Shown here: positions 1-58,235 of the stretch, in pieces | Layout: every line of letters begins with the position of its first letter | How positions within the stretch are numbered: position 1 is the first letter of the stretch | Source of the DNA: Coraliomargarita sp. | GTDB taxonomy: Bacteria > Verrucomicrobiota > Verrucomicrobiia > Opitutales > Coraliomargaritaceae | NCBI GenBank assembly: GCA_965216325.1 | Contig: OZ244160.1 | Coordinates: 1,504,001 to 1,568,000 of the forward strand | Direction: 5' to 3' | DNA: 64,000 bases | The notes under the pieces: generated by a model | What the model was told of the DNA's origin: nothing | Databases searched by the model: none | The model's input: the letters and a program-made list of their open reading frames with translations, nothing else | Made by a program: the position numbers and the translations under genes

Positions 1-1838
1 ATGTAACCGGCCCGGCCAAGACCTGGGTAGGCACTATTACCGACACCAACTACATTATACTCCTTATCAAACAGATTATCCACACGGCCAAACAAGGCCC
101 ATTGTTCGGTAATTTGCCAATCGACAACAAAGTCTACCAAGAAGTAATCATCCCCCGCACCACCCGAGTCAGGACTAGCGTGGTATCCAGTGCCTGTTAG
201 ACCAGTGCGAATGTCATCTGACAAATCGGCCACCGCAGACACTTGAACAGTGTGCCGCGGACGACGCAGCAAACGGCGACCAGTATCCTTATCCTCGGTG
301 TCGAGATAAGTATAGCCAACCCCCAAGCTCAGGAAGTCGAAGGCAGCATAATCCGCACTCAACTCTATACCCTGCGTCTCGGCCTCAGAGATATTATAAA
401 CATCATAGCGGTAACCTCCGTCGATAAAACCGATGTATTCGAATTCAATCAGATCATCGATATCATTATAAAAGTAGACCGCAGACCACTCCAGCTTGTC
501 CTCCAGCAGACGTTGACGAAAGCCCAGTTCATACGAAACACCTTCTTCCGGATCAATCGGTGAGCTCGGGTCATAGTCATATGCCAAGTCACTTGGACGT
601 GGAGGCGAATAGGAGTTCGACACCTTGGCAAATACTGACGCATCCCACTCTAGAATGTTGTAGATTGCCTCAAAGTTGCCCGTTAGTGACTCGTCATAAT
701 CACTGTAATCATCTCCACGCACACCAGCACGCAATTCGATGCGTTCATTGATCTGCCAGACGGCTTGAGCAAACCCGCCAAACTGTGAAACGTTATTTGA
801 GTAGTCAGTTGAGTTACGCTTCAACTCATCATTGCGGTAGAGCATGCCACCTGTGAGCAACAACTGATCAGAGATGGTGTAATCCACTTGCAGACTCACT
901 TCATCCGAGTTGATCTCATCGTCTGTCACACTGTATGGCCCTTCACCCTCTAGGTCACTTTCGCTACGGGAGTAAAAGAAATGGATTGTGATCTCATCGG
1001 TCGCATAGCGAAGCCCGGGCGACAAGATCCAGTATTGATTTTCGGTCCACGCCTCGGGGCTCGGATATCCGACTGATCCAGGAACATCTTTATCTACCTC
1101 AGTATATTGCCCGAGCAATTCGAAGGTAAAATCTTCAGCGAGCAGATAATCAAAACGTGAGGTAATGGAATACTCGTCAGTCGAGTCATTATCACGTTCA
1201 TTATCAGTGGTCAGCGCCGACCCACCCACGCTCAAGCCCCAACTCTCATCCGAGACTGCAGTCGAAAAGGCCCCACGATAGGTATCATTTGAACCGAACT
1301 CACCCTCAAGCGCAGCTGTGTATGCTTCCTCGCCGAGAACTCGTTTCGATTGTAGGTCCAGCACACCACCAATGCCACTCGATCCATAGTTCACGGAAGA
1401 GGCACCTTTCTGGAACTGCACGCTTTCGAGATTATTGATCGAGAGCGACTCCGCATTGAACTGGCCACTAAAGGCGCTCGGTAAACGACGACCATCTAGG
1501 AAATATCCAGTGTGGTTGCTATTCGTGCCACGGGTAAAAACCGAGGTGAGCGCACCATAGGCACCATTACTACGCACTGTAACTCCAGTCTCGCGCTTGA
1601 GTGCATCCGTCAATGTACGATCCTGCCAGAACTCCATTTCATCCGCCGAGATGTAACTCACCGAAGGTGAGACACGATCAGGCGAGAGCGGCGTGCGCGT
1701 CGCAACCACCACGTAGGGTTCCATCTGCACCTCTGTGGTATCCGTCTCGGACATCCCTGCCCCAGCAAAGGTAGCGGCCACAGGTAAGGTGCAGGCTGTT
1801 AATAAGATTGTTCGTTGTTTGGTGAATGAAGCATTCAT
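1..1838 (-). CDS. TonB-dependent outer membrane receptor, BtuB-like plug; 3' end runs just off the window
   Basis: Manual translation from ATG at 1838: MNASFTKQRTILLTAC...VVVATRTP (TonB box), SVFTRGTNSNHTGYFLDG plug motif; C-terminal GRVDNLFDKEY...PGLGRAGY near base 1. Absent from the ORF track because the stop lies outside the window. Confidence 0.9.
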   Translation of the reverse strand, partial: MNASFTKQRTILLTACTLPVAATFAGAGMSETDTTEVQMEPYVVVATRTPLSPDRVSPSVSYISADEMEFWQDRTLTDALKRETGVTVRSNGAYGALTSVFTRGTNSNHTGYFLDGRRLPSAFSGQFNAESLSINNLESVQFQKGASSVNYGSSGIGGVLDLQSKRVLGEEAYTAALEGEFGSNDTYRGAFSTAVSDESWGLSVGGSALTTDNERDNDSTDEYSITSRFDYLLAEDFTFELLGQYTEVDKDVPGSVGYPSPEAWTENQYWILSPGLRYATDEITIHFFYSRSESDLEGEGPYSVTDDEINSDEVSLQVDYTISDQLLLTGGMLYRNDELKRNSTDYSNNVSQFGGFAQAVWQINERIELRAGVRGDDYSDYDESLTGNFEAIYNILEWDASVFAKVSNSYSPPRPSDLAYDYDPSSPIDPEEGVSYELGFRQRLLEDKLEWSAVYFYNDIDDLIEFEYIGFIDGGYRYDVYNISEAETQGIELSADYAAFDFLSLGVGYTYLDTEDKDTGRRLLRRPRHTVQVSAVADLSDDIRTGLTGTGYHASPDSGGAGDDYFLVDFVVDWQITEQWALFGRVDNLFDKEYNVVGVGNSAYPGLGRAGY

Positions 1839-2595: not shown

Positions 2596-3812
2596 GATGG
2601 GAGGGGTCTTTCAGACCAGACCTTTATTGAATTGGTATCACTCTCCGCCTCCAACAATCGAGTCCGCCGATGCTGTTGTGGAAACTGCAAGGTAATGACC
2701 GAGCCCACTCCTTCGCGCGATTCGATACCGATCTGACCACCATGGTCGCGCATGATACGATTCACAATCATCATCCCCAGCCCGTGTCCACCGGTCTTGG
2801 TCGTGAAATAGGCCTGAAAGACTTTGGATAGATCCTCCTCTGAGATGCCGTCGCCCGTATCGATGAACTGCATGTAGACAAACTCATGATCACTTCGCGC
2901 CAGAATGCGCAAGCGTCCACCGGGGTGCATCGCCTCCATGGCGTTCTTGATCAGATTGAAGAACACCTGCTTCACTTGGCCACGGTCGCCAAGAATCGCG
3001 GGGACTGCTTCCGCCACTTCAACATTCACATCGATCTTGCGGCCGCTGAGTTCGGCTTCCTGCACACGGAGCACCTCATCGACGAGTTGAATTAAGTCCA
3101 ACTCATTGAGCTCAGGCTTCTGTGGCCGCACCGCCTCAAGGAAGTGGGTAATGATGCCATCCAGACGCTGCACTTCGCCTTGGCAGACACGAATCGAATC
3201 CGCCAGCTTCTGACCGCCCTCAAGCTCCAACTTCTTGAGCTTACGCTCAATCAACTGCAGATGAATCGTGAGCGAGTTCAACGGGTTGCCTAGCTCGTGC
3301 GCAACACCCGCGGCGAGGCGCACAATCGATCCCGTGCGCTCGTTCTCGATCAACTCCTCCATCGAGACTTTGTCTTCGGTCACATCGGAAAGCACGACCA
3401 CATAACCGCCACTCTCCGAGCTCCCCACCTGCGCATCAATCGGCACCATATAGAGCCTGACAAATCGATGCTCCGGGTAGCTGAGCTCAATCTCGCGGGA
3501 CAAGACCGGCTTGGCCGTCATGCCTTCGTCGCCATCTGTAGGATCAATCGAACGTGCCAGGTCCGGCACCATTTTCCAGAGTCGCACCACTCCAATGTCG
3601 TCTTGTTTGAGACCGATAATCCCACAAGCAGCATCGTTAGCATACTGCACCGTGCCATCCGAATCGATGACCAGAATACCATCCTGAATGGTATTGAATA
3701 CCGTCTCCTGCATCTTGCGCTCCCGCGCCAAGCGCTGCACGAGAATCCCCAGATTCACCGAATCAAGATCTTCGATTCGCCCTAAGATTTTGTCCAAGCC
3801 AGTGTTCTTCAT
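2568..3812 (-). CDS. PAS-domain sensor histidine kinase (NtrB-like)
   Basis: H-box [12 protein letters not shown]-box [15 protein letters not shown] and GHGLGM G-boxes; last codons (PSASSGQ*) lie inside the repeat. Confidence 0.92.
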
Positions 3813-47675: not shown

Positions 47676-48236
47676 CTAAATCACACTCTCACTGGAGTCG
47701 TCGGAGGATAATAATTCGGCCCCGCCGAGCACTGCAGTGACCACGGGCAGCAGTTTGACCATGCGCGCCTGCCAATTGATGAGGGTGCCCAAGCGTTGTT
47801 CGGCGTGCTTTCGCTGCGCGGGATCTGGCTCTGCCTCGATTAAGTCGCGGATGCCTTGAATCCTCGCAGCTCCGGACTGCAGGTGCGGATTGAACTGGTC
47901 CTGAATGAAGCCGCGCACCAAACGCTTGATCGAGAGCTCCGGCACGTAGTGATCCTTACGACTTCCAGCCACATACTGCACCTTCACCGCACCAAACTGG
48001 CGTAGCAGCTTTAAGCCCTGGCTGACGGAACCCTTGCTGATTCCCAAGCGCTCAACCTGATCGTCAAAGGTGAGCGGACGCTCCGCACAATACAGCACCC
48101 CATAGATCTCCCCCACCGAGCGCGGTAAGCCAATCAAATTGGCGGCACGGACAAACATCTCGACCATCGCGACTTCCCAGGGCTGCAAGGCTCTGGAGGG
48201 CGCTTCTTCAAAGGGAACTGTGGGCTCCGAGGGCAT
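47676..48236 (-). CDS. GbsR/MarR-family transcriptional regulator
   Basis: GLPRSVGEIYGVLY..PLTFD..ERLGISKGSVSQGLKLL...RKDHY; start taken at MPSEP. Confidence 0.85.
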   Translation of the reverse strand: MPSEPTVPFEEAPSRALQPWEVAMVEMFVRAANLIGLPRSVGEIYGVLYCAERPLTFDDQVERLGISKGSVSQGLKLLRQFGAVKVQYVAGSRKDHYVPELSIKRLVRGFIQDQFNPHLQSGAARIQGIRDLIEAEPDPAQRKHAEQRLGTLINWQARMVKLLPVVTAVLGGAELLSSDDSSESVI

Positions 48237-48336
48237 GAGGAGGGTCCGCGCAGTGGATCCGTTATTAGTCTTTAGGTGTTGGGCATTAGGAGGGCAGGAA
48301 CACTGCAGAACCACTATTCATGAACAATCGCGCCAA

Positions 48337-48360
48337 TTTGTTCAAGTTTTTTTGAACAAA
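48337..48360. promoter_or_regulatory. Perfect 9-6-9 palindrome, candidate operator of the GbsR-like regulator
   Basis: TTTGTTCAA-GTTTTT-TTGAACAAA about 100 bp upstream of the regulator start. Confidence 0.55.
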
Positions 48361-48475
48361 CCATACAACTAATGCATTTAGCGGCAAAGCTCAAGAGGGC
48401 TTCACCCTAGAATACCGAGGACGCAATCGAGCATTGCGACCACCCACACCAGCGGGCTTCGCAAGCAAAGCCCCT

Positions 48476-48811
48476 GCTATGTTCGTTTCTGTCAAGAGTG
48501 TAGAAGCGTGTGAGTGTTTTTACATAAGATAAGTGGTTTGTTTTGATTGCAATCGTCTTTGAGCGTCCACCGCGCATGGCCTCGGAGTTTCGATGATCCG
48601 GGATAACCTGCTATCCGTGTTTCTGAGTGTTTCTCAGAAGAGCACACTATGACCTATCCATTGGGTCATTCAAAAGCTTGGTGGCGAAGTGGCCTATTCT
48701 ACAAAATCGTTGTGTTGGCAACAGGGGCTTGGTCAGACTCACTCCGCACAAAGGAAAACTGCAAAAGAACGTTAAAATCAGAGGGTGAAGGCCTTTAGCG
48801 TTGGTTCGGAC
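48476..48811 (-). ncRNA. Candidate bridge/seek RNA region downstream of the IS110 recombinase
   Basis: ~335 nt non-coding end with hairpins, matches to both target halves (AAGCCCCT, TTGTAG) and to the donor end (ATAGCAG); exact RNA ends unknown. Confidence 0.65.
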
Positions 48812-49900
48812 TTATGGGTTTTGTCTGCTTATCAGTCCGAAGTCTTCGAGACTGCATTGGCCAGTGCGTATGCGCCACCAGTCCACGGCGAACTGCCGGG
48901 CGATGGCCACGGCAATTTTCTTGCGGGTCGCCTTACTGGTGGTCTCGTCGCTGAGCTTGGCCTGCCATTTACGCACCCCACTGTAGCCGGGATTCCACCG
49001 GATCAATAACCAGGCGCACTCTTGTAGCATATGCCGCAGGCGGGGACTGCCGTGTTTGTTGATCGAGCCCTGGAAACGCCGATTTGCACTAGTGTCTTCG
49101 CTTGGGCACAGTCCGGTAAAGGAACTGACCGCCTTGCGGTTGTTGAATCGCTTCCAGTTGCAGACCTCACGTTCGATCTGTTCATAGAGGACCACCCCCA
49201 TGCCTTTAGGCAGCACCCGTTCCGGCTCGAGCGCTTCGATACGTTCTTCGATGTTGCTGATTAGCTCGCTAAAGTGCAGGCAGTTTAACCGCAGTGGCTC
49301 CAGCAGGCTGATCAAAAAATCGTCGAGCTGTTCGAGTAGCTGCATCCATTTGCGCGGCTTCCACCAGCCGCTGGGTAAGGGTTGATCGTAATACAGTCCC
49401 AGACTCTTACCACGCTTGGCCGCACGGCCACGTTCTTTGACGAAGCTTTCACGCTGCCGGGTTAGGCTGCGGTGACGCTCTTCTTGCTCGCTGGGCACAC
49501 GCACGACACTGAAGCTGCGGTCATTGCCCCGCAGATAGCCGTCCAGACTCAAGACCATTTGCAACGCATCACGCGCGTCGGTCTTTACCTTCTTACCATG
49601 AGTGTCCCAGTTGATCGGGCGGATTACGTGGTTGTTCACGCCCATCGCCTTGAGCTTGCGGTGCAGGCTGTAACCAAAAGGACCGGCCTCGTAGCAACTT
49701 TGCAACTGCTCGCACTGAGTGCTCAGCTGCTTAATCCATCGAAGGAAGATATCAGGCTTCATGCGCTTCGCGCGTGAAGGGGCGCTGCTATCGATCTTCA
49801 TGACCACCACGTAGGTGCTCGCATGCACGTCAATGCCAAGCTTGATTACTGTGCCCAGTGCGTTCTTAGTTGTCCGTGTAGATGATGTGGGGTTTTGCAT
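48812..49900 (-). CDS. IS110 family DEDD recombinase/transposase
   Basis: LGIDVH, CYEAG, KTDARDA (DEDD RuvC-like); GLCPSEDTS..GSINKHG C-terminal domain. Confidence 0.95.
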   Translation of the reverse strand: MQNPTSSTRTTKNALGTVIKLGIDVHASTYVVVMKIDSSAPSRAKRMKPDIFLRWIKQLSTQCEQLQSCYEAGPFGYSLHRKLKAMGVNNHVIRPINWDTHGKKVKTDARDALQMVLSLDGYLRGNDRSFSVVRVPSEQEERHRSLTRQRESFVKERGRAAKRGKSLGLYYDQPLPSGWWKPRKWMQLLEQLDDFLISLLEPLRLNCLHFSELISNIEERIEALEPERVLPKGMGVVLYEQIEREVCNWKRFNNRKAVSSFTGLCPSEDTSANRRFQGSINKHGSPRLRHMLQECAWLLIRWNPGYSGVRKWQAKLSDETTSKATRKKIAVAIARQFAVDWWRIRTGQCSLEDFGLISRQNP

Positions 49901-49949
49901 AAGTTTATCATCATAGCACTTCCGTGCTCCTGATAAACGCCCATGTCAT

Positions 49950-51569
49950 CTACAACGCAAGGTAGGGGCGCGACTCGACGCGCCCGCCGACAGAGTAGCA
50001 ACCCGCCACACGTAAACGGGCGTGCGCGAGGCCCGCCCCTACAATACACGGGCCGAAAACAGAGACAGAGCCTATCCGGAGCATGGCAATGGCGGAGCAT
50101 TGCCCTCCAGCCAAATAGCACAAAGTTAAGCGCCTGGAGTTAAGAACGTAGGGCTTCTGCTTGCAGAATGCCGCAGCGTTGTAAGCCACGTCAGCGGCTC
50201 CGCCATTCGGCCTAAGCTCAGGATCGAAGGCAAGCAAAGCCCTACAACGCAAGGTAGGGGCGCGACTCGACGCGCCCGCCAACAGAGCAGCAACCCGTCA
50301 TACGTAACCGGGCGTGCGCGAGGCCCGCCCCTACAATACACGGGCCGACCACAGAGACAGAGCCTATCCGGAGCATGGCAATGGCGGAGCATTGCCCTCC
50401 ACCCAAATGACACAAAGTTAAGCGTCTGGAGTTCAGAACGTAGGGCTTCTGCTTGCAGAATGCCGCAGCGTTGTAAGCCACGTCAGCGGCTCCGCCATTC
50501 GGCCTAAGCTCAGGATCGAAGGCAAGCAAAGCCCTACAACGCAAGGTAGGGGCGCGACTCGACGCGCCCGCCGACAGAGCAGCAACCCGTCATACGTAAC
50601 CGGGCGTGCGCGAGGCCCGCCCCTACAATACACGGGCCGAAAACAGAGACAGAGCCTATCAGGAGCATGGCAATGGCGGAGCATTGCCCTCCACCCAAAT
50701 GGCACAAAGTTAAGCGTCTGGAGTTCAGAACGTAGGGCTTCTGCTTGCAGAATGCCGCAGCGTTGTAAGCCACGTCAGCGGCTCCGCCATTCGGCCTAAG
50801 CTCAGGATCGAAGGCAAGCAAAGCCCCTACAACGCAAGGTAGGGGCGCGACTCGACGCGCCCGCCAACAAAGCAGCAACCCGTCATACGTAAACGGGCGT
50901 GCGCGAGGCCCGCCCCTACAGTACACGGGCCGACCACAGAGACAGAGCCATCCGGAGCATGGCAATGGCGGAGCATTGCCCTCCAGCCAAATAGCACAAA
51001 GTTAAGCGTCTGGAGTTCAGAACGTAGGGCTTCTGCTTGCAGAATGCCGCAGCGTTGTAAGCCACGTCAGCTCGCCATTCGGCCTAAGCTCAGGATCGAA
51101 GGCAAGCAAAGCCCTACAACGCAAGGTAGGGGCGCGACTCGACGCGCCCGCCAACAAAGCAGCAACCCGTCATACGTAAACGGGCGTGCGCGAGGCCCGC
51201 CCCTACAATACACGGGCCGACCACAGAGACAGAGCCTATCCGGAGCATGGCAATGGCGGAGCATTGCCCTCCAGCCAAATGACACAAAGTTAAGCGCCTG
51301 AGTTCAGAACGTAGGGCTTCTGCTTGCAGAATGCCACAGCGTTGTAAGCCACGTCAGCGGCTCCGCCATTCGGCCTAAGCTCAGGATCGAAGGCAAGCAA
51401 AGCCCCTACAACGCAAGGTAGCGGCGCGACTCGACGCGCCCGCCAACAAAGCAGCAACCCGTCATACGTAAACGGGCGTGCGCGAGGCCCGCCCCTACAG
51501 TACACGGGCCGACCACAGAGACAGAGCCATCCGGAGCATGGCAATGGCGGAGCATTGCCCTCCAGCCAA
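49950..51569. repeat. Tandem array of ~5.5 x 292-bp REP-rich units (BIME-like)
   Basis: TACAACGCAAGGTAG at 49951, 50243, 50535, 50828, 51115, 51407; each unit has two inverted GTAG-REP pairs and a GGCAATG-N6-CATTGCC hairpin. Confidence 0.95.
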
Positions 51570-51756
51570 AAACAAACACCTAACTAAGTTCCGAACGAAG
51601 CAATGAAGTGCGTTGAGCACGTAAATAGTGCACCGTAGGTGTGCCCGTAGTGTAATGGAGAGTGACCAAACTGGGTGCCCTCTGGGCGAGTGAGGAAACA
51701 CAAGACCGGATGCGGAGCAGACCGGACCACTTAAAACTAAAGCAGCTACGCTGCGC

Positions 51757-52029
51757 TTACCCCTTCGCGACGATCGGCGCAATCAGCAAGAACCACGAAG
51801 CGACACCGCTAAACAACAGCATAAACACCCCGCATGTGCCCATAAAACGCGCAAACTTTTTATACTCGATGGCATTGCTCACACCAAAAAGTTTCGAGCA
51901 CACCGTGCCACGCAATTTGCGCTTGGACTCCTCCGATGCAGCAATGCAGTAAATCCCGATCACGCCCGGCATGAAGCTGATGAAGACTTTAACTAGAAGT
52001 ATTACGAATCCGACGTTTAGGAGTTCCAT
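51757..52029 (-). CDS. Small hypothetical membrane protein
   Basis: 90 aa with two hydrophobic segments. Confidence 0.6.
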   Translation of the reverse strand: MELLNVGFVILLVKVFISFMPGVIGIYCIAASEESKRKLRGTVCSKLFGVSNAIEYKKFARFMGTCGVFMLLFSGVASWFLLIAPIVAKG

Positions 52030-57638: not shown

Positions 57639-58235
57639 ATGAAATTCTTCAACCCACGCCTACTCGTGAAAATGCATGGTGGCAAATTACCACACTGGCA
57701 ACAAGAACACTGCCCACAATTCATTACCTTTCGTGAGCATGATTCGCTGCCACAAGCACTCCTAAGCCAGTGGCGAGAAGAGAAACAAATCTGGCTTAAA
57801 AAGCACCCGGAACCACACGATGAAACTACCCGCAATGCTTTCCATGCTAGATTCACTCAGTCGATTGAAGACGCACTCGATCAAGGGATGGGCACCTGCG
57901 TAATGCGCGATGGGAAGAATCGACAAAAGCTCGAAGTGGCTCTGATGCTGGCACAAAACGATCAAGTCGAGCAACTCTCATGGGTAATAATGCCGAACCA
58001 TGTCCACATACTCTGCATACCAAGACTACCTCTGCCCAATCTAATCAAAATCTGGAAAGGTGTCTCTGCGAGGAAAGTTGGCAGAGGCAAACTTTGGCAA
58101 GCCAACTACCGAGACACTCTCATTCGAAATGAAACACACTTCAAGCGAGTCGTGCACTACATTCGAAACAACCCCAGCAAGCTACCCACCTCACAGTATA
58201 CACTATGGGAGTCCGACATAGTTAAAAAGATATGA
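57639..58235 (+). CDS. REP-associated tyrosine transposase (RAYT/TnpA-REP, Y1 HUH)
   Basis: LPHW, FITFR, VIMPNHVHIL (HUH), WQANYRDTLIR, YIRNNP; flanked by REPs. Confidence 0.92.
   Translation: MKFFNPRLLVKMHGGKLPHWQQEHCPQFITFREHDSLPQALLSQWREEKQIWLKKHPEPHDETTRNAFHARFTQSIEDALDQGMGTCVMRDGKNRQKLEVALMLAQNDQVEQLSWVIMPNHVHILCIPRLPLPNLIKIWKGVSARKVGRGKLWQANYRDTLIRNETHFKRVVHYIRNNPSKLPTSQYTLWESDIVKKI

Follow-up and report, generated by a model that had tools for sequence, protein, structure and literature searches.

A predicted two-loop guide RNA matched to a host REP sequence in an IS1111-group insertion sequence of Coraliomargarita

We analysed a stretch of 64,000 nt from Coraliomargarita sp. (assembly GCA_965216325.1, contig OZ244160.1, positions 1,504,001 to 1,568,000; the window, whose numbering is used throughout unless genome positions are named). 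Positions 48476..49949 very probably hold an active IS1111-group insertion sequence (IS) with a 3' guide RNA of about 190 nt and two loops, matched to a repetitive extragenic palindromic (REP) sequence of the host. The anatomy of the element, its copy number and sites, the structure of the RNA and the covariation of its guides with target and donor sequences were observed directly. To judge from the sequences, the strength of the guide evidence lies in the number of different targets that each fit their own guide.

The insertion sequence and its copies

The element lies on the minus strand and measures 1474 bp without its core dinucleotide, or 1476 bp with one AG core. In the sense of the recombinase its left end is at 49949 and its right end at 48476, and it consists of one open reading frame (ORF) of 362 amino acids (48812..49900) with a 49-nt left end upstream and a 336-nt non-coding right end downstream. 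The plus strand reads CT, hence AG on the minus strand, at both 48474..48475 and 49950..49951, and units of an adjacent tandem array contain the site undivided, ...GCGTTGTAGGGGCTTTGC..., with only one AG. AG on both sides of the element, together with this undivided single-AG site, sets its limits at 48476..49949 with one copy of the core on each side. A first-pass annotation, made from the sequence alone, had proposed that an element with these limits splits its site at an AG core, and both the borders and the undivided site bear this out. Comparison of nine occupied sites with the undivided one showed no target duplication beyond the shared AG, and insertion is site-specific.

48476..49949, minus strand: insertion sequence; ends common to nine copies in its own genome, undivided site in array units
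49950..49951, minus strand: core AG, left copy, preceded by the left target ...TTGT (49952..49955)
48474..48475, minus strand: core AG, right copy, followed by the right target GGGCTT...
48452..48473, minus strand: right half of the split host REP, hairpin GGGCTTTGCTTGCGAAGCCCGC, the same sequence after 9/9 IS copies

The 3.06-Mb genome, a single contig, contains nine full-length copies, eight with an identical score and one slightly lower, and an intact Transposase_20 match was found in all nine. In the recombinase sense the right flank is AGGGGCTT in 9/9 copies, followed by a hairpin of type GGGCTTTGCTTGCGAAGCCC whose loop carries a longer insert in three of them. The left flank ends in GTAG in eight copies and in GAAG in one, and the two bases further out are variable. 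The third base before the core is C or T at all nine occupied sites. We considered a preference for a U.G wobble at this base and set it aside, as it is inseparable from REP composition; unoccupied sites also mostly have C or T. With eight identically scoring copies and one slightly lower-scoring copy, all in REPs, the element is, judging by these sequences, an active insertion sequence.

Contigs assembled from four public DNA runs gave a depth for the IS contig of about ten times that of the flank in the three runs that covered the flank. One run contained a joint that skips the element; its 24-nt side is too short, so an empty site is not distinguishable from another REP. No circle junction (joined IS ends) was seen in the assembled contigs of these four runs.

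Structure of the predicted guide RNA

The 336-nt non-coding end and a 192-nt core within it each fold alone into two stem-loops. The first has a 13-bp stem with one interruption and an internal loop, with ACCAAGCCCC(U) on the 5' side, then a small hairpin, and AUUUUGUAGAA on the 3' side. In the second, a CCACC/GGUGG stem encloses an inner hairpin. The predicted parts are as follows.

48561..48752, minus strand: predicted bridge/seek RNA core, 192 nt, target-binding then donor-binding stem-loop (covariance model, 140.8 bits)
48684..48747, minus strand: target-binding stem-loop; outer stem 48740..48747/48684..48691, second stem 48734..48738/48692..48696
48709..48722, minus strand: small hairpin between the target guides; compensatory changes in 4/5 pairs
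48567..48684, minus strand: donor-binding stem-loop; outer stem 48680..48684/48567..48571, inner hairpin 48616..48646

The first-pass annotation had named three guide-like motifs in this end, and its view that they should lie in loops held for the two target motifs, which are unpaired and flank the small hairpin in both the single-sequence and the consensus folds. It held less well for the donor motif ATAGCAG, which falls partly inside a small local stem in the single-sequence fold.

Relatives came from three sets: 20 species-genome loci (18 with Verrucomicrobiota-type names and one a Candidatus Sulfotelmatobacter metagenome-assembled genome), five further genomes besides the element's own among 151 sampled from the same phylum, and 80 metagenome loci. 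Thirteen distinct RNA sequences were aligned with MAFFT, and the resulting consensus, with five helices, was used to build a covariance model (R1). In this alignment the paired cells amount to 89.8%, and compensatory changes on both sides occur in 17 of 25 pairs. None of 500 column shuffles reached the observed level, and partners slid by 1-3 columns pair at 35-50%. The model placed the RNA directly 3' of the gene in 24 of 26 sources (none in L028 or L029) and in 77 of the 80 metagenome loci, where four matches were cut by a contig end and one partial minus-strand match was dropped. The guide and flank counts below are drawn from 100 elements in total.

Some relatives are decayed. The RNA of L028 (~1810..1830) ends after the first stem; in L014 (~2850..2900) a 22-nt piece is present three times and the right end is altered; and L025 and L027 have a right target guide 1 nt shorter and broken protein matches.

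Target guides change with the flanking DNA

All three motifs of the first-pass annotation were recovered on the minus strand at exactly its positions: AAGCCCCT at 48723..48730, TTGTAG at 48699..48704 and ATAGCAG at 48608..48614. The first two fall in the two target guides.

48723..48730, minus strand: right target guide AAGCCCCU, top-strand complement of AGGGGCTT (core and right target); covaries with right flanks
48699..48706, minus strand: left target guide UUUUGUAG, in the sense of left target and core, hence predicted bottom-strand pairing; effective match GUAG to UUGUAG

We compared these matches with chance using 20,000 mononucleotide shuffles of the 336-nt end. The 8-mer occurred in 121 shuffles, the 6-mer in 1108 and the 7-mer in 406; the 8-mer followed within 60 nt by the 6-mer occurred in one of the 20,000.

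For the relatives, the right guide was defined as the 11 nt directly 5' of the small hairpin, and its reverse complement was compared with the flank after the right end, itself located through the conserved TTGAC...ATAGN-AG end motif. Seventy-eight elements with at least 10 nt of flank yielded 28 distinct guide 9-mers, each of which was given one representative. Counted contiguously from the core, the cognate matches were 0, 0, 0, 1, 1, 1, 5, 6, 7, 8 (five times), 9 (twice), 10 (eleven times) and 11 (n = 28). The median was 8.5 nt for cognate pairs (n = 28) vs 3 nt for non-cognate pairs (756 pairs), and a match of at least 8 nt was found in 19/28 cognate vs 13/756 non-cognate pairs. None of 100,000 permutations reached the cognate sum, a figure that, like the permutation figures for the left guide, overstates significance for the reason given below. 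Representative pairs are listed here.

This window: right guide AAGCCCCU, flank (core plus target) AGGGGCTT
L011, a 73%-identical IS of Thalassobacterium: right guide UGAAGCCCCU, flank AGGGGCTTCA
Seven Synoicihabitans copies: right guide UGACCCCU, flank AGGGGTCA
L016: right guide UGACUCCU, flank AGGAGTCA
L021: right guide CGACACCGCU, flank AGCGGTGTCG
L036: right guide GGCCCCGCCCU, flank AGGGCGGGGCC
L067: right guide UGCAGCGUCCU, flank AGGACGCTGCG

The left guide is shorter. Across nine lineages the two bases before the core agree in 17 of 18 cases (permuted mean 7.7; 23 of 100,000 permutations reach this), and with four bases 23 of 36 agree (10 of 100,000 permutations). Among 68 elements with 21 guide 6-mers, matches are usually 4 nt long with the core counted in, and reach 7 nt at most. 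Motifs thus differ between homologues with different targets, guides changing in step with flanks, and this covariation supports the earlier proposal of a bridge RNA programmed to a host REP.

The host REP and the flanking array

The sequence GTAGGGGCTT occurs 34 times in the genome vs about six times expected from composition, and the hairpin follows most of these occurrences. Of 16 genomic matches to the Y1 transposase (Y1_Tnp) family, one lies inside the window at ~57930..58172. A gene of the type of REP-associated tyrosine transposases (RAYTs), a Y1 gene with a 197-aa frame (read stop to stop) and an HFHVL motif, lies at genome positions 1680016..1680606 and is flanked on both sides by the repeat pair GTAGGGGCTTTGC..GAAGCCCGC ... 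GCGGGTGTCGCAAG..ACACCCCTAC (genome region 1679978..1680690). We label the repeat a REP because copies of it lie on both sides of this RAYT-type gene, as would be expected of a REP, or of a REP doublet forming a hairpin (REPIN), with its RAYT. The target, taken for a REP already in the first-pass annotation, is a genuine host REP, and the IS cuts it at its outer edge.

On the left, the element borders a tandem array (49950..51570) of 5.6 units of 292 bp with 96% matches, which begins exactly at the IS boundary. As a whole the 292-bp unit has no second occurrence in this genome. At least four short dispersed repeats (25-47 nt) make up its mosaic, and every one of them is present elsewhere. The exact GTAGGGGCTT site is kept in only two array units, and the remaining units have one G fewer. 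In the window copy the left flank (49950..49990) runs into array units with a REP variant carrying a 28-nt loop insert, and the right flank (48452..48475) is a simple REP. Given these unlike forms, the two halves may derive from different REP variants, and either an array boundary or a rearrangement between IS copies may account for the difference.

Donor guides

The second stem-loop contains matches to the ends of the element itself, again placed around a hairpin.

48608..48614, minus strand: left donor guide AUAGCAG, the last five right-end bases plus core; covaries with the last base of the right end
48647..48655, minus strand: candidate right donor guide AGGUCAUAG, in which GUCAU complements the first five left-end bases (ATGAC)

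Right ends finish in ATAGC in 74 of 79 elements, and left ends start with ATGACAT or ATAACAT. When the variable base of the left donor guide is set against the last base of the right end (n = 79), the combinations are C:C in 74, G:G in two (L021, L100) and A:A in one (L036). The left donor guide is supported by these sequences.

The first-pass annotation could not confidently find a right donor guide. The candidate reported here partly fills that gap: it sits 5' of the inner hairpin, the place equivalent to that of the right target guide in the first loop, and the 3' side of the inner hairpin reads GAUAGCAG. In the Synoicihabitans copies AUGUCAU matches ATGACAT at 7/7 positions. Across 27 guide/donor types, guide position 5 tracks donor base 3 with one exception (C:G in 13, U:A in 13), position 6 pairs in 14 (U:A in 12, G:C in two), and positions 4 and 9 pair in every type. 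The core bases are complemented (CU) in one subclade. We regard this right donor guide as probable from the aligned types, and as the least secure part of the reading. A local hairpin of the guide with an upstream AUGAC is lost in L017-type relatives and was not counted as structure.

Recombinase and family assignment

Here and below, published statements are taken from the consulted sections of PMC11187229, PMC11208160 and PMC12288879. The ORF encodes a recombinase with both domains of its family.

48812..49900, minus strand: recombinase gene, 362 aa, DEDD RuvC-like plus Transposase_20 domains (Pfam, invariant residues, fold)
49927..49944, minus strand: left subterminal inverted repeat ATGGGCGTTTATCAGGAG, after a 7-nt extension, AGATGAC, that includes the core
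48479..48498, minus strand: right subterminal inverted repeat CTCTTGACAGAAACGAACAT, then the 3-nt extension AGC; contains TTGACA (48490..48495)

The match to PF02371 (Transposase_20) is well above its cut-off (52.9 bits vs 21.3) and that to PF01548 (DEDD_Tnp_IS110) barely so (29.2 bits vs 29). All 20 relatives compared keep residues D24, E71, D108, D111 and S271. S271 is followed by A rather than the G of the GL-P----S(G) serine motif described in PMC11187229, in a column that is variable (A/S/G/D/N). By that motif and by profile alignment to ISCro4, we read the invariant D, E and S columns as probably catalytic. A phmmer search with the recombinase against PDB sequences gave no match at E up to 0.01, and IS621 and ISCro4 were reached only through profile and fold searches. 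The AlphaFold model (mean predicted local distance difference test score 82.9) retrieved IS621 and ISCro4 chains at Foldseek ranks 1-10, over the whole length, with E from 9e-10 to 3e-8 and template modelling (TM) scores of 0.54-0.65; the best fold matches were IS621 8wt9/8wt6 (E 9e-10, TM 0.55-0.65) and ISCro4 9t56 (E 5e-9). Identity to the nearest protein in the database is 81%, and to the nearest with an NCBI name, from a Coraliomargarita isolate, 72%.

The layout is that of the IS1111 group, in which the non-coding region is downstream, the subterminal repeats measure 11-13 bp with 7-nt and 3-nt extensions, and the top-strand complement in the seekRNA is 5' of the bottom-strand match (PMC11187229); 93% of IS1111 elements have a bridge RNA prediction in their right end (PMC11208160). 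The window element has 336 nt of downstream non-coding sequence vs 49 nt upstream, and its guides are in the same order, with AAGCCCCU (RNA positions 82-89) ahead of UUGUAG (108-113). Its subterminal repeats, which the automated repeat search did not report, were picked out by hand. Pairwise alignment showed them to be imperfect, matching at 14 of 18 aligned positions with a 2-nt gap. When the core is assigned to the left end, the extensions fit 7 and 3 nt exactly. The domains, invariant residues, fold, downstream RNA and subterminal repeats together confirm the IS110/IS1111 call of the first-pass annotation.

A 20-nt inverted repeat, 80% complementary, joins the left terminus and left flank (49935..49954) with the first recombinase codons (49877..49896), and its gene-side motif CCCACATCA recurs in relatives. 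From its position, a hairpin of left terminus and gene start may limit translation of read-through transcripts. A Sigma-70 promoter scan of 48400..50050 returned no sites. We set aside a possible junction promoter, TTGACA in the right end and TGACAT across the joined ends, 17 nt apart: its second hexamer is poor, and TTGAC belongs to the inverted repeat.

Other elements of the clade

The tenth match of the covariance model in this genome is a second, distinct IS1111-type element at genome positions ~2769471..2771002 (L045 274..1804), present as a single copy with a 384-aa recombinase. It is flanked by ...GTCA-AG and AG-GAGGGGAG. Its right guide CUCCCCUCCU matches AGGAGGGGAG at 10/10 positions, and of its left guide ACCAAG, CAAG matches. 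The site is the loop and 3' arm of another dispersed palindrome, CCCCTCC...GGAGGGG; the genome still has 18 CAAGGAGGGGAG sites that are undivided. Going by guides and sites, one genome holds two related insertion sequences programmed to two REP families.

A sister element from a metagenome (L051, 73% protein identity) has the guide GAAACACCCCU and the site AGGGGTGTTGC, GTAG|GGGTGTTGC; its flank resembles the other arm of the REP pair beside the RAYT-type gene.

Among the matches listed, at least 601 stretches match a sequence pattern, and a relative is encoded in at least 527. The clade recombinases are about 15-18% identical to the solved bridge recombinases, and the target loop is markedly asymmetric, with a right guide of 8-11 nt and a left guide of 2-5 nt plus core. 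A further peculiarity, in the window element's subclade, is a right donor guide that lacks pairing to the core. These relatives might constitute a large, unstudied clade of IS1111-type bridge recombinases in Verrucomicrobiota and many soil and water metagenomes, a suggestion that we make tentatively and consider rather doubtful. Should these features amount to a true mechanistic variant (e.g. with specificity mostly on one strand), the clade would be a useful set of orthologues with about 100 natural guide/target pairs.

Proposed mechanism and alternative explanations

We propose that the target-loop guides define the site (Y)YGT-AG-GGGCTT at the outer REP edge, and that AUAGCAG and GUCAU in the donor loop define the joined right-end/left-end junction of an excised circle. 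The element would excise with its right end, one AG and its left end joined (predicted ...CATAGC-AG-ATGACATGG...), and the RNA would be transcribed, processed and bound by the recombinase. The donor loop would then hold the junction and the target loop the REP edge, and strand exchange at the AG core would integrate the element into the REP, leaving AG on both sides. For RNA transcription and processing, recombinase binding, the circle and the chemistry of strand exchange, we argue by analogy with IS621, ISEc11, ISPa11 and ISPpu9.

Several results weigh against this account. Folding energy is ordinary both for the 336 nt (z +0.86; 80 of 100 shuffles at least as stable) and for the 192-nt core (z -0.54; 57 of 200 shuffles), so the case for an RNA rests on the comparison with relatives. 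An Rfam scan of 48000..52000 at E up to 1 matched no family, and none of the public runs that carry the sequence is RNA. Both donor guides lie partly in local stems in the single-sequence fold. The right flanks were found through a conserved end motif and therefore start with AG by construction, which makes the core part of each match circular, and related elements are not independent, which is why the permutation figures overstate significance. The window's own right guide mismatches its REP at the ninth base, and in six of the 28 representatives the contiguous match is only 0-1, either because the hairpin-proximal base differs (...CCCG, ...CCAU) or because the copy looks decayed (L025/L027). 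Among the donor guides, the left is discordant in 2/79 elements (L014, L015), and the right has an A.A mismatch at position 6 in 13/27 types. In the window's subclade the two hairpin-proximal right-donor bases (AG) do not complement the core. Left-end starts are nearly invariant, so few independent changes test the right donor guide.

One alternative is that only the first stem-loop guides, as a short seekRNA for the target and for the donor's target-derived flanks, with the second a protein-binding scaffold whose end matches are retained by descent and with the IS ends recognised by the recombinase via the subterminal inverted repeats. There is precedent in ISEc11, where an 82-nt RNA with only the two target matches supported mini-IS movement (PMC11187229), and a single guiding loop would sit well with the imperfect right donor guide and with IS ends so nearly invariant (74/79 ATAGC) that few changes test the donor guides. 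The same paper reports that the ISEc11 donor flanks had to match the seekRNA. Against this, the last base of the right end and its guide base co-change in two lineages (G:G in L021 and L100, A:A in L036), position 5 of the right donor guide tracks donor base 3 in 26/27 types, and the donor matches mirror the places of the target guides around the inner hairpin. We therefore consider a single guiding loop improbable, and favour two.

A more radical view denies the matches any guide role and attributes them to chance or to captured REP fragments, with the protein alone choosing the site. They are indeed short (6-8 nt), and REP-like sequence is abundant in the genome. Set against this are the paired target motifs, reproduced by only 1/20,000 shuffles, their location in loops of a structure supported by covariation, and their change with the flank in 28 guide types, including that of the second same-genome IS at a different REP; we think this explanation very unlikely. 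We give even less credence to a 3' RNA that mainly regulates transposase expression, as a processed 3' UTR (untranslated region) or an antisense partner, with target complementarity secondary. ISPpu9 does carry regulatory small RNAs (PMC12288879), and the 20-nt inverted repeat ties the left terminus to the first gene codons, but the RNA core has no complementarity to the gene start, and loop sequences that track the flanking DNA would be left unexplained. A two-loop guide RNA matched to the host REP accounts for the nine repeats, for their fixed position in REPs and for the function of the 336-nt 'non-coding' tail.

Comparison with known systems

REP-targeting members with an AG core have already been described: IS621 (PMC11208160), ISPa11 (PMC11187229) and ISPpu9/ISPpu10 (PMC12288879). 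The mechanism was described in 2024, and our understanding of it is unchanged by this result. The novelty lies in the sequence (judged by nearest proteins, not ISfinder names), in the lineage of its host and in how widely the clade extends. The possible new orthologue of the first-pass annotation is thus new in sequence, with its nearest protein at 81%, and is not a new kind of system. In the parts of the PMC11208160 supplements that were searched, Verrucomicrobia is among the tree phyla (10 occurrences) and there are no Coraliomargarita or Opitut entries. The data set provides natural guide/target covariation for the less-studied IS1111 layout in 100 elements and 28 right-guide types, including two elements in one genome for two REP families and a sister element whose target resembles the opposite arm of the REP pair used by the window element. 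Orthologues of this kind are raw material for programmable recombinases.

By description, the window element resembles ISPa11 of P. aeruginosa, also of the IS1111 group, which has a REP target, a downstream non-coding region and the same guide order, and whose seekRNA co-purifies with the transposase (PMC11187229). It differs from ISPa11 in host phylum, with relatives mostly in Verrucomicrobiota, and in the REP sequence. ISPpu9 and ISPpu10 of Pseudomonas putida likewise have several copies in REPs or bacterial interspersed mosaic elements (BIMEs), with reported circle intermediates and a junction promoter (PMC12288879); ISPpu9, unlike the window element, is assigned to the IS110 group, without subterminal repeats and with its bridge RNA upstream of the gene.

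The comparison with ISCro4 (synaptic complex 9t56; fold E 5e-9, TM 0.57-0.65) covered the protein. ISCro4 gave the best PDB profile match (E 1.9e-4), in an alignment that spans the GL-P----S motif at an identity of only 16-18%. IS621 of E. coli, the IS110-group prototype of bridge RNAs, shares with the window element the DEDD and Tnp domains, fold similarity over the whole length, a two-loop RNA that pairs with both strands around a 2-nt core, and a REP target (PMC11208160). The two are about 15% identical in protein in the structural alignment. The RNA of IS621 is upstream, in the left end, whereas that of the window element is predicted downstream with the guide order reversed, and its target loop combines a long right guide with a short left one.

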